Shown piece by piece: positions 26,811 to 56,400 of a stretch of 60,000 nucleotides of DNA. The DNA comes from Schmidtea polychroa (Eukaryota), in assembly GCA_044892525.1 (NCBI GenBank), contig CM097885.1:1800001-1860000 (forward strand), in the 5' to 3' direction. The position numbers and the translations under genes were made by a program. The notes under the pieces are model-generated. The model saw nothing but the letters and a program-made list of their open reading frames with translations. It was not told the origin of the DNA and did not search any database. Every line of letters begins with the position of its first letter. Position 1 is the first letter of the stretch.

Positions 26811-27589
26811 AATGATATTGTTTTTGGACTGTATTGGATTGGATTGAATAACATAAGGAAGGATTGAATATTCGATTGTTCACAAATATTATTTTATTAG
26901 GTTGATTCGAGTTGGTTGTGTTATTAGGTTATCTGGGTCTACCGTCTCTCCTCGGCACATATATTGACCTTATATCTCCTGGGCCCTGTTTTATAATATT
27001 TGTTGAGGTTAAATGTGGTGATAGGCCTACCCTCATCATCCAACATAAATTAAACTCAACATGAAAACTAAATCACGATGAGAACGTGTGAACGACTCGT
27101 TTGTTTTCCAAAATGCGTTGATAATGATGATAGCGCTAATCACAACTCTAAATTCTATGTAGTGAACAAATATTCATTATCTAAGTAGGTAACCCGTAGT
27201 AGAGAAAATACCATTTAATGTCGGAAATAAAGAATATTTCCTCAACAGAATATAACCTCGTAAATGAGGACAGAATTATCCACCGATATTATGTCTCATT
27301 TAATTATCTAAATAGTAGCAACGAAATTCAAGAATTTCAGTAGGTAGATAGTGGCCCGCTGCCGCAATTACCCCCCCCCGGGGGGGGGGGGGGTCTGCGG
27401 CAGCTTTTTTTTTGCGGCAAATTTTTTTTTTGCAGCAACTTTTGGTTACGCAATTGCGGCAACTCAAAATTTTTGCTTTTCAGGGATTTTTAGTCCAAAT
27501 TTTTTTTATCACACTATAGCGAGGGGGTCTCGATGGACCTGGGATTTTCAATACAAAAAAATTTTTTTCAATACGAAAAGGTGGTCTCA

Positions 27590-29310
27590 ATAAAAAAGCA
27601 TGGATTTATCCCACTATAGTGAGGGGGTCTCCTTGGTCCTGAGAAAAAGGTGGTCTACACTAAAAAACAGTGGCAATTTAAAGTCTCAGGATATTTTCAA
27701 TACAAAAATCCGACTACCACTAAAAAAAGCATGGATTTTTCTAGGTCAATTCAGGTGGGTCTCCTTGGTCCTGAGAAAAAGGTGGTCTACACTAAAAAAC
27801 AATGGCAATTTAAGGTCTAAGGATATTTTCAATACAAAAATTCGACTACCACTAAAAAACAGTGGCAATTTAAGGTCTCAGGATATTTTCAATACAAAAA
27901 TCCGACTACCACTAAAAAAAGCATGGATTTTTCTAGGTCAATTCAGGTGGGTCTCCTTGGTCCTGAGAAAAAGGTGGTCTACAAAAAAAACAGTGGCAAT
28001 TTAAGGTCTCAGGATATTTTCAATACAAAAAGGTGGTCTACACTAAAAAACAGTGGCAATTTAAGGTCTCAGGATATTTTCAATACAAAAATTCGACTAC
28101 CACTAAAAAAAGCATGGATTTTTCTAGGTCAATTCAGGTGGGTCTCCTTGGTCCTGAGAAAAAGGTGGTCTACACTAAAAAACAGTGGCAATTTAAGGTC
28201 TCAGGATATTTTCAATACAAAAATCCGACTACCACTAAAAAAAGCATGGATTTTTCTAGGTCAATTCAGGTGGGTCTCCTTGGTCCTGAGAAAAAGGTGG
28301 TCTACACTAAAAAACAGTGGCAATTTAAGGTCTCAGGATATTTTCAATACAAAAAGGTGGTCTACACTAAAAAACAGTGGCAATTTAAGGTCTCAGGATA
28401 TTTTCAATACAAAAATCCGACTACCACTAAAAAAAGCATGGATTTTCTAGGTCAATTCAGGTGGGTCTCCTTGGTCCTGAGAAAAAGGTGGTCTACACTA
28501 AAAAACAGTGGCAATTTAAGGTCTCAGGATATTTTCAATACAAAAAGGTGGTCTACACTAAAAAACAGTGGCAATTTAAGGTCTCAGGATATTTTCAATA
28601 CAAAAATTCGACTACCACTAAAAAAAGCATGGATTTTTCTAGGTCAATTCAGGTGGGTCTCCTTGGTCCTGAGAAAAAGGTGGTCTACACTAAAAAACAG
28701 TGGCAATTTAAGGTCTCAGGATATTTTCAATACAAAAATCCGACTACCACTAAAAAAAGCATGGATTTTTCTAGGTCAATTCAGGTGGGTCTCCTTGGTC
28801 CTGAGAAAAAGGTGGTCTACACTAAAAAACAGTGGCAATTTAAGGTCTCAGGATATTTTCAATACAAAAAGGTGGTCTACACTAAAAAACAGTGGCAATT
28901 TAAGGTCTCAGGATATTTTCAATACAAAAATCCGACTACCACTAAAAAAAGCATGGATTTTTCTAGCTCAATTCAGGTTGGTCTCCTTGGTCCTGAGAAA
29001 AAGGTGGTCTTCACTAAAAAACAGTGGCAATTTAAGGTCTCAGGATATTTTCAATACAAAAAAACACTTTTCAATACAAAAAGGAGGTCTTCAATAAAAA
29101 AGCATGGATTTTTCTAGGTCAATTCAGGTGGGTCTCCTTGGTCCTGAGAAAAAGGTGGTCTACACTAAAAAACAGTGGCAATTTAAGGTCTCAGGATATT
29201 TTCAATACAAAAATCCGACTACCTTTAAAAAAGCATGGATTTTTCTAGGTCAATTCAGGTGGGTCTCCTTGGTCCTAAGAAAAAGGTGGTCTACACTAAA
29301 AAACGTGGCA
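27590..29310 (+). repeat. Higher-order tandem array of 60-bp and 72-bp modules in outer left arm (mirror at 55135-56174)
   Basis: Modules GGTGGTCTACACTAAAAAACAGTGGCAATTTAAGG... and TCCGACTACCACTAAAAAAAGCATGG... Confidence 0.95.
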
Positions 29311-53479: not shown

Positions 53480-56400
53480 TTAGTTAGTACGTGGTATCAT
53501 GTTGTAAGTATTTGTTAGCACCTAGTTAAAAAATAATCAGTAACCGATTGTTGGTAACTGTTGAATTATTATTATTTTTATTATTATTATTATTATTATT
53601 ATTATTATTATTATTATTATTATTATTATTATTATTATTATTATTATTATTATTATTATTATTATTATTATTATTATTATTATTCCATTAAAATTTCCAT
53701 TTAAATTTTCATTATAAATTACATTTCTCAAAAAAGTTGGTGGTTATTCAATCTTTTGATAATAAATAAATAATTTTACTTTAATTTACTTATTTAGCTT
53801 TAATTTAAAATTTGAACCATTGGATACTTAATTTTAAATTTTGAACCTTAATTTACTTATTTAAAATTTTTAACTTTAATTTACCTAATTATTTTTATTT
53901 CTTAATTTTACACCATAATTTACTTAACAACTAAATATAATCCTTATTTTCATATTTAACCAATAATTTCATGTGGTCATCTGGTTGTCAGTGCTTGGTA
54001 TCTAGTTGACAGTGCTTAGTACTAGGTATCTAGTTGTTGGCTGGTTGTTAGTACTTAGTTGTTGGTTGTTGTTGATTGTAAGTACTTGGTATCTAGTTGT
54101 TAGCTGGTTGTTAGTACTTAGTTGTTGGTTGTAAGTAGTTGGTATCTGGTACCTAGTTGTTAGTTGGTTGTTGGTTGTTAGTACTTGGTAGCAGGTAACT
54201 GGTTGTTAGTACTTGGTATCAGGTAACTGGTTGGTTGTAGGTATTTAGTAGTTAGTTGATGATGCTTAGTACCTGGTTGTTGTCGGTTGTGAGTACTTGG
54301 TAGTTGGTTAATAATGCTTAGTACCTGGTTGATGTTGGTTGTAAGTATTTGGTAGGTGGTAGTTAGTTGTTAGCTGGTTGTTGTCGGTTGTTAGTACTTG
54401 GTATGTGGTTGTAGGTACTTGGTTGATAATGCTTAGTAGCTGGTTGTTGTGGGTTGTGAGTAGTTGGTATCAGGTTGTTAGTAACTAGTTGTAGGTATCT
54501 GGTTGTAAATACATGTTCGTAAGTTACTGGTTGTTGATACTAAGTTGTTAGTTTGTTGTTGAATTATTATTAAAATTTGTCTTTGAAAAATAATTCATAA
54601 AAATTTTCATTAAAAATTATCTTAAAAATTTCCATCTAAAATTATCATTGAAAAATATTTCATAAAAATTTCCATTAAAAATTACCATTGAAAAATAATT
54701 CATTAAAATTTCTATTAAAAATTACTTAAAAATTATTTCATAAAAATTTTCATTAAAAAATTTCAATTCTCAACCAGCTTCTATTATTTTGTAATTAAAT
54801 TTTAAAATCTTACTTTAATTTACTTATTTAAAAATTTTACCATTGATTACTTAATTTAAAAATTATTACTTTAATTTACTTATTTAAAATTTTTTACCAT
54901 TGATTACTTAATTTAAAATTTGGACCTTTATTTACTGTAATTTAATTTTTAGGACCATTATTTACTGTAATTTAATTTTTAAGAACCATAATTAACTGTA
55001 ATTTAATTTTTAGACCCATTGCTTACTGTAATTGAAAAATTTGAACCATAATTTACTGTAATTCAAAATTTTTGACCATAATTAACTGTAATTTTATTTT
55101 TTAGAACCATTATTTACTTTAATTGAAAAAATTTACCACGTTTTTTAGTGTAGACCACCTTTTTCTCAGGACCAAGGAGACCCACCTGAATTGACCTAGA
55201 AAAATCCATGCTTTTTTTAGTGGTAGTCGAATTTTTGTATTGAAAATATCCTGAGACCTTAAATTGCCACTGTTTTTTAGTGTAGACCACCTTTTTGTAT
55301 TGAAAATATCCTGAGACCTTAAATTGCCACTGTTTTTTAGTGTAGACCACCTTTTTCTCAGGACCAAGGAGACCCACCTGAATTGACCTAGAAAAATCCA
55401 TGCCTTTTTTAGTGGTAGTCGGATTTTTGTATTGAAAATATCCTGAGACCTTAAATTGCCACTGGTTTTTAGTGTAGACCACCTTTTTCTCAGGACCAAG
55501 GAGACCCACCTGAATTGACCTAGAAAAATCCATGCCTTTTTTAGTGGTAATCGGATTTTTGTATTGAAAATATCCTGAGACCTTAAATTGCCACTGTTTT
55601 TTAGTGTAGACCACCTTTTTGTATTGAAAATATCCTGAGACTTTAAATTGTCACTGTTTTTTAGTGTAGACCACCTTTTTCTCAGGACCAAGGAGACCCA
55701 CCTGAATTGACCTAGAAAAATCCATGCTTTTTTTAGTGGTAGTCGGATTTTTGTATTGAAAATATCCTGAGACCTTAAATTGCCACTGTTTTTTAGTGGT
55801 AGTCGAATTTTTGTATTGAAAATATCCTGAGACCTTAAATTGCCACTGTTTTTTAGTGTAGACCACCTTTTTCTCAGGACCAAGGAGACCCACCTGAATT
55901 GACCTAGAAAAATCCATGCCTTTTTTAGTGGTAGTCGAATTTTTGTATTGAAAATATCCTGAGACCTTAAATTGCCACTGTTTTTTAGTGTAGACCACCT
56001 TTTTGTATTGAAAATATCCTGAGACCTTAAATTGCCACTGTTTTTTAGTGTAGACCACCTTATTCTCAGGACCGAGGAGACCCACCTGAATTGACCTAGA
56101 AAAATCCATGCTTTTTTTAGTGGTAGTCGGATTTTTGTATTGAAAATATCCTGAGACCTTAAATTGCCACTGTTAAATTAATTAAGGATTAAATTTTTAC
56201 TACATGTTATAATATTGAATTCTTATAATGTCATAAGTCTCCTATAGACCTAATTTTCTTCTAGATCAAGACTAAACTGCTATCCTACCATTCTGCAGAG
56301 AAATTAGAATAATACATCACTGGTACCTTCGACTCGTATTTTGGCATAACTGATAAAACCTTAAAGTTAAATCGGCACATACAGACTCAAGTGCTTTACG

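Follow-up and report, generated by a model that had tools for sequence, protein, structure and literature searches.

When a Polinton lies inside another element that begins with the same terminal sequence, are the two a helper and its satellite, and did one seek out the other or merely land there? The question is posed by a 60,000-nt window of the Schmidtea polychroa genome (contig CM097885.1), in which a gene-bearing Polinton/Maverick interrupts one arm of a larger element made almost entirely of inverted arms. The analysis drew on this window, on public contigs aligned to the core of the outer element, and on protein searches. It makes it probable that the outer element belongs, as a damaged copy, to a gene-less, near-palindromic family with many members and Polinton ends, likely copied and inserted by the polymerase and integrase of resident Polintons, and that a complete Polinton later landed in its right arm, probably by chance. 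A previous sequence-only reading of the locus had described an autonomous Polinton nested in a palindromic relative; the nesting, the shared ends, the empty site and the lack of genes have stood up, whereas the right end, the full palindrome and the unqualified term "autonomous" have not.

Order of insertion and structure of the outer element

The 18-mer AGTAGGTAGATAGTGGCC occurs on the plus strand at 27339 and 36403 and on the minus strand at 53462-53479, with no further occurrence in the window. The last two copies, together with the gene set between them, delimit the inner Polinton (36403..53479, 17,077 bp, not assigned to a strand), and on either side of it lies the direct repeat TTAGTT (36397..36402 and 53480..53485, both plus strand), a target-site duplication (TSD) whose leftward extent is exactly 6 bp; the chance of such a 6-mer at the composition of the arms is about 9e-4. 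The left arm of the outer element retains the empty target site, a single TTAGTT in reverse complement at 31127..31132 (minus strand), and therefore the Polinton came second, inserted into a right arm that already existed. The sequence to the left of the Polinton mirrors 31133-31382 with 1 difference in 250 positions, and that to its right mirrors 29814-31126 with 3 differences in 1,313; because contigs of the family are mostly 90-99% alike, the latter value places both sides of the Polinton in one copy of the outer element. The nesting is real, and the duplication, the order of insertion and the reverse-complement empty site in the left arm, all proposed beforehand, are borne out at these positions. 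The four bases past the target site (53486-53489) are the same as the first four of the element (36403-36406), so that a 10-bp direct repeat flanks the insertion.

The outer element begins at 27339..27356 (plus strand) with 18 bp identical to both inner ends. Its left arm (27339..34286, plus strand, 6,948 bp) comprises, besides this terminus, 60/132/192-bp arrays, 30-bp and 13-bp arrays, a CAACCA-rich block, an (AAT)n tract and non-coding DNA specific to the outer element. A central non-mirrored, non-coding spacer of about 790 bp (34287..35078, no strand) separates it from the right arm, of which the proximal part (35079..36396, minus strand) mirrors 33266-34286 and 31133-31382, with a deletion junction at 36145/36146, and the distal part (53486..56174, minus strand) mirrors approximately 27858-31126 and is broken, with neither terminus nor TSD. 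An arm segment of 1,883 bp (31383..33265, plus strand) has no mirror on the right. Without the insert the parts sum to 11,753 bp, whereas a spacer between two arms of the left arm's length would make 14.7 kb. The right arm stops at 56174 inside the 192-bp array, falling short of the tip by at least about 520 bp; there is no right terminus in 56175-60000 and no outer TSD. Position 56174, previously taken for the end of the outer element, is thus a break, and the copy is damaged: its right tip and TSD are gone, and 1,883 bp are missing from its right arm. The claim that the terminal 18 bp and the terminal inverted repeat (TIR) vocabulary are common to the outer and inner elements accordingly holds for the left end and the modules but not for the right end, and that of inverted arms around a spacer has to be narrowed to a near-palindrome, in which the whole 4.0-kb right arm is mirrored at 0.39% difference but lacks the 1,883-bp segment and the tip. 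It should be noted that the two ends and 6-bp TSD by which a non-autonomous Polinton is recognized are not all present in this copy.

No gene remnant was found in the outer element by tblastn with 12 inner open reading frames (ORFs) or with profiles from 40 integrases and 25 polymerases. Stop-free frames in the outer core (31392-35065) reach 67 residues at most, against 75 ± 13 in 200 shuffles, and there were no Pfam matches in 4 of 4 outer frames tested and no Rfam matches. The absence of a recognizable gene, as the sequence-only reading had it, is upheld by all of these searches, and the element appears to be gene-less, although genes fragmented by many short introns remain conceivable. The outer-specific arm (30076-34286) also has a GC skew of −0.34 to −0.44 and an AT skew of up to +0.26, far stronger than those of the inner genes.

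Family membership and arm-to-arm similarity

The outer core (31050-35065) was the query against the contigs of 4 of 16 listed runs (three organism runs and one metagenome, from three studies); the type of library is at best a guess, and one of the runs is possibly the assembly's own source sample. The aligned contigs numbered 85,298, 13,414, 13,509 and 557, and in every run they cover all 30 bins. Most of them are 90-99% alike on the core, with 232 places where an alternative letter occurs. For the three runs of the organism summed depths of 10^5 to 10^6 were reached, depth here not being equivalent to copy number. Because so much variant sequence covers both the non-mirrored block and the spacer, more than one locus must have contributed, and, judged from these variant contigs, the outer element is a member of a large, diverse multi-copy family. 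That only one copy might exist in the genome, a finding that the sequence-only reading had named as telling against it, is contradicted by variant contigs in all four runs. The more detailed comparisons covered 40 of the 232 variant places, 15 of 408 joints and 24 of 3,415 loose ends; none of these 15 joints corresponds to the 1,883-bp deletion, and none of these 24 loose ends falls at the empty site.

The depth of the segment 31383-33265 relative to the neighboring arm block gave median ratios of 1.45, 1.07, 0.97 and 1.07 in the four runs. That the block missing from the right arm is about as deep as its neighbor hints at a family in which both arms carry it and at a loss private to this copy. 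Set against the expectation of one spacer for every two arms, the spacer depths give a mixed picture: in three of the five spacer bins the depth is about one-third to one-half of arm depth in three of the four runs, with no drop in run X13. A further spacer bin, 34802-34935, is about 3 to 4 times as deep as the arms in all four runs, and a 31-nt motif adjoining it (34941-34971) recurs in the arm at 31559-31589 with 93% identity; bin and motif are possibly a cis-signal common to other families. None of the matches of the 18-mer in metagenome contigs was used, since two of the three are GC-rich chance matches and the other is an AT-rich match of 26 nt with no Polinton gene. In the AT-rich contig (L001:2032-2049) the 18-mer is followed by a G-run, and this is possibly the end of a related element.

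Outside the arrays, 10 of 2,584 aligned positions (0.39%) distinguish the two arms of the outer element. Fourteen of the 40 variant rows fall in mirrored blocks; in 13 the majority has another letter than this copy, and one minority row was dropped. At 9 of these 13 sites the rare letter stands on both arms, although 71-100% of the depth has another letter there, and at the other four it stands only in the left arm, the right arm having the family letter. Because both arms carry family-rare letters at 9 of 13 sites, it appears that copying between the arms took in the older changes but not the recent ones. Such a pattern fits copying through a fold-back intermediate before integration.

The inner Polinton and the question of a helper

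The TIR modules of the outer and inner elements come in the same order: hairpin, 100-bp-type unit, 30-bp array, 13-bp array and (AAT)n. In the terminal 2.7 kb of the outer element 18-54% of the 15-mers are in common with the inner TIR; for the flanks and the interior the value is 0-2%, and from 31050 onward the outer core has almost none. A subterminal hairpin around a C-run/G-run core (27358..27404, plus strand) is more stable than in any of 200 shuffles (z −5.1), and the subterminal hairpins at the outer and inner ends have z values of −5.1, −3.6 and −4.3. Four of the seven pairs at positions 22-28 of the stems are changed on both sides and are still paired in both elements, and the stem word recurs downstream in a copy that has changed along with the stem. 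The structure of the hairpin is conserved while its letters are not; one template switch could suffice for this, so that four independent events need not be supposed. Because the subterminal stems differ yet pair, the outer element is, on this comparison of ends, a sister end-type and not a simple deletion product of the inner Polinton. The proposal that the inner Polinton is the helper or parent of the outer element is therefore not sustained, given the differing stems and a core nearly free of inner-TIR 15-mers. The shared 18 bp make it possible that the inner family supplies a helper, and mobilization of the outer element in trans by Polinton proteins is likely, a judgment that comes from the shared ends only.

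Outer positions 33921-34024 match inner positions 44326-44440, comprising the protease stop codon and sequence downstream of it, over 116 nt with 73% identity and with the first 21 bases identical. The score of 55 for this match compares with a maximum of 51 in 200 shuffles; it is the sole link to the interior and a weak one, and it is possibly the relic of a Polinton interior.

The inner element has the polymerase, integrase, packaging ATPase, protease, long TIRs and 6-bp TSD by which a Polinton/Maverick is defined. Its left TIR (36403..38494, plus strand) is about 2.1 kb and its right TIR (51802..53479, minus strand) about 1.7 kb. The first 41 bp are perfect, and there are 4 differences in the first 698 bp, 3 of which border the C/G run, leaving 1 real; such near-identical tips suggest a recent insertion. 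They also differ less than the outer arms do, which is a weak indication that the Polinton insertion is the younger. The TIRs diverge more at their inner ends (21 of 348 positions between 38121-38494 and 51802-52170), in part within repeats.

The protein-primed family B polymerase is encoded by an open frame of 1,429 residues (38510..42799, minus strand), assigned from its relatives, which are up to 64% identical across residues 600-1330 and many of which carry PF03175, and from the presence of polymerase motifs; compared with Pfam directly it gave no polymerase-family match, and a PDB sequence search gave none at all. Also on the minus strand are an adenovirus-type cysteine protease (44428..44806, PF00770 above the curated cut-off) and a probable major capsid protein of the double jelly roll type (44841..46064, 407 residues), which scores 0.98 to clusters in which PF21738 marks 24-30% of members, a match at the level of a lead; it has no direct Pfam match and no related locus in viral contigs. 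These are followed by an ORF of 132 residues to which no function is assigned (46061..46459, minus strand) and two paralogous ORFs of about 340 residues each (46452..48486, minus strand) with no family match in Pfam or PHROGs, apart from weak PHROGs matches, which from their position and the usual Polinton layout are likely to be minor capsid (penton) proteins. A retroviral-type integrase with a chromo domain (48492..49640, minus strand, rve and chromo matches), a small basic protein matching adenovirus protein X, the mu core protein (49710..50036, minus strand, PF05829), and an A32-type packaging ATPase (50238..50861, minus strand, PF04665 above the curated cut-off) complete the minus-strand set. 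On the plus strand are a TBP-like protein of 158 residues (50912..51388, PF00352, E 3e-16) and a Cys-rich ORF of 115 residues with no assigned function (51452..51799). The window holds 10 occurrences of the motif TATAAACMAA against an expected 2.7, and 0 of 100 shuffles reach 10; 6 of the 10 sites lie upstream of inner genes on the minus strand, and none is within the outer element.

The integrase frame is interrupted by a GT..AG segment of 42 nt (49103-49144, minus strand), and the protease frame, near its start, by one of 40 nt (44762-44801, minus strand). Both pieces of the integrase ORF match 109 of the 120 listed relatives, and 97 of those 109 are contiguous at the place of the segment. 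The segments are probably spliceosomal introns, a reading favored because of their GT..AG ends, their host-like length (about 45 nt in a neighboring host gene) and the occurrence of a second such segment in the protease. A private inactivating duplication in the integrase ranks below this; the 11-bp direct repeat that flanks the 42-nt segment is what an origin by tandem duplication would give, but the same three features count against it. The term "autonomous" used for the inner Polinton is therefore retained only in part: the polymerase, integrase, ATPase, protease and capsid-like ORF are present, two of the frames are interrupted, and the element is likely to be autonomous on condition that it is spliced. 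The accessible text of PMC8097293 reports intact vertebrate Mavericks as intronless, and the uninterrupted ORFs by which that source recognizes intact elements are lacking here in the integrase and protease.

The host gene in question (57543-57962, plus strand), which presumably encodes a protein resembling endosulfine/ARPP-19, lies 1.4 kb from the break at 56174. The left flank holds decayed hAT transposons and a Penelope-like element with reverse transcriptase and GIY-YIG domains (13640-16141, 19757-21454 and 25461-26773).

Competing explanations and known systems

The history that we favor would begin with helper proteins that recognize the paired subterminal hairpin as well as the terminal 18 bp. 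A single strand, once displaced, would fold back into a hairpin of about 7 kb, and changes would pass between its arms during replication; a racket-like single-stranded intermediate of this kind is part of the published Polinton model, as given in the part of PMC4196379 consulted. After integration of this copy the arm-to-arm copying would have stopped, and the right arm would then have taken three one-sided events, namely the Polinton insertion, the 1.9-kb deletion and the loss of the tip. The helper need not belong to the subfamily of the inner Polinton. As an interpretation of the locus, the sequence-only reading thus survives in its order of insertion and in a multi-copy, gene-less, Polinton-ended family, but not in its identification of the helper or in preferential insertion; its snap-back component agrees with the rare letters common to both arms but not with an outer core that is not parental coding DNA.

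Several observations weigh against the favored history. The outer copy has neither right terminus nor TSD, so that mobilization of this particular copy by an integrase is unsupported. The outer-specific core does not consist of decayed genes, and apart from the 116-nt match its origin from a Polinton interior is unexplained. Contig depth does not give copy number, and the 18-mer had no match in viral contigs and three in metagenome contigs, without a whole end-bearing copy. Two of the nine shared rare-letter sites adjoin an indel or repeat, and chromosomal gene conversion could likewise give shared rare letters. Finally, each strand is rich in C and A over its 5′ half, whereas deamination, if that half were displaced, would be expected to have the opposite effect.

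Foldback elements and miniature inverted-repeat transposable elements (MITEs) are non-coding, have long modular inverted arms with tandem arrays, and reach high copy numbers. It is conceivable, if unlikely, that the outer element is a transposon of the Foldback type moved by the Polinton integrase alone, with no self-replicating snap-back stage and with chromosomal gene conversion keeping its arms alike. Its long modular TIRs with tandem arrays resemble those of Foldback elements, nothing in the data points to extrachromosomal DNA, and the strand skew is at odds with a simple displacement expectation. However, the Polinton insertion, the loss of 1,883 bp and the four substitutions seen only in the left arm are each confined to one arm; because these recent changes are one-armed while the older rare letters are on both arms, chromosomal conversion appears to have been inefficient in this copy. 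The outer element differs further from Foldback elements and MITEs in that its ends and subterminal modules are of the Polinton type, and its size is far above that of MITEs.

The suggestion that Polintons insert preferentially into such relatives is not upheld, since it concerns a single case and random landing in an abundant family would give such cases: if the family makes up 1-3% of the genome and there were 50 Polinton insertions, both of which are assumed inputs, the probability of at least one nested case is 39-78%. Chance nesting is therefore plausible. Targeted nesting, in which the integrase would prefer end-like sequence or co-replicating satellite DNA and Polintons would insert above chance and disable satellites, is improbable. 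It draws on the four bases that follow the target site in the empty site, which equal the first four of the element and give the 10-bp repeat; the matching 4-mer is found at 77 of 10,452 strand positions of the outer arms (0.7%), but it was spotted post hoc. A 17-kb insert may moreover stabilize a long palindrome and so bias which copies survive. Targeted nesting is known from a related system, where EMALE virophages harbor 91% of the type 1 Ngaro retrotransposons, but EMALEs themselves are without sequence-specific integration, both according to the available portion of PMC8547959. A more far-reaching proposal, to be regarded as similarly doubtful, is that of an animal germline snap-back polintovirus satellite, with a gene-less hairpin genome of about 14-15 kb, a size that would fill a capsid, which would be replicated, packaged and integrated by Polinton proteins and would be a favored landing site for its helper, insertions breaking the symmetry and killing the copy. 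Finally, that the outer element arose from a Polinton by local fold-back or deletion, or is an artifact of assembly, is very improbable and at the family level largely refuted. In favor of it, the copy is truncated in a tandem array, lacks an outer TSD and was seen in no spanning long read or contig; against it, the non-mirrored segment and the spacer are covered in all four runs by variant contigs that number from hundreds to tens of thousands, the sequence right of the Polinton is far closer to the left arm than family contigs mostly are to one another, and the TSD is exact and the same as the empty site.

What is known of how Polintons replicate comes mostly from sequence analysis, with the fold-back intermediate having the status of a model, and herein lies the interest of a high-copy, gene-less Polinton-ended family. 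Arms that co-evolve and a terminal hairpin that keeps its pairing would mark the cis-signals that the enzymes need, and comparison of copies would make the fold-back model testable. The nested copy may also serve as an internal clock, in which changes on both arms predate integration and one-sided changes postdate it. If nesting were enriched, it would indicate a conflict of helper against satellite within an animal genome.

Non-autonomous Polintons are represented in Repbase by its "N" families, and the concept is already known; the gene-less palindromic satellite family is the apparent new part, with an earlier description possible. A literature search, which took in the accessible text of PMC3014272, PMC11296320, PMC9863843, PMC12166617, bioRxiv 10.1101/2024.01.15.575659 and the other papers cited here and had supplementary copy tables outside its scope, found no gene-less, fully palindromic, high-copy Polinton family. 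The Polintons/Mavericks described in the available parts of PMC8097293, PMC10748475 and PMC6431247 resemble the inner element in the 13-25 kb class, long TIRs, 6-bp TSD and genes for a protein-primed family B polymerase, integrase, ATPase, protease and capsid-like proteins, and the outer element in the type of terminus and the TIR modules. The inner element differs in having TIRs of 1.7-2.1 kb rather than the 100-1,500 bp commonly cited, a TBP-like gene and two probable introns, and the outer element in having no genes and being almost entirely TIR. Among derivatives that depend on functions supplied in trans, as the outer element would also do, Tlr1 has sometimes been viewed as a non-autonomous Polinton (PMC5499653, in the section consulted) and butterfly polintons lacking polB have been described (bioRxiv 10.1101/2025.02.07.637071, accessible text), whereas in the anole, as far as the available text of the anole paper goes, non-autonomous Polintons are apparently absent. 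The derivatives in the first two sources, in the parts available, still have genes or cargo, in contrast to the gene-less outer element, with arms of about 7 kb and a spacer of about 0.8 kb, near the size of its presumed helper. The term "defective-interfering", applied earlier, can stand as an analogy, but the Polinton genes do not persist in decayed form in the outer arms, and beyond the TIR modules and the weak 116-nt match the outer element lacks the sequence derived from a parent genome that marks a snap-back defective genome. With the snap-back defective viral genomes described in the accessible text of PMC13506859 it shares the lack of coding capacity and retained ends, and perhaps also a near-full-length palindrome; those genomes, however, belong mainly to RNA viruses and are transient by-products of their parents, whereas the outer element appears to represent a diversified chromosomal family with a core that is not recognizably parental coding DNA.

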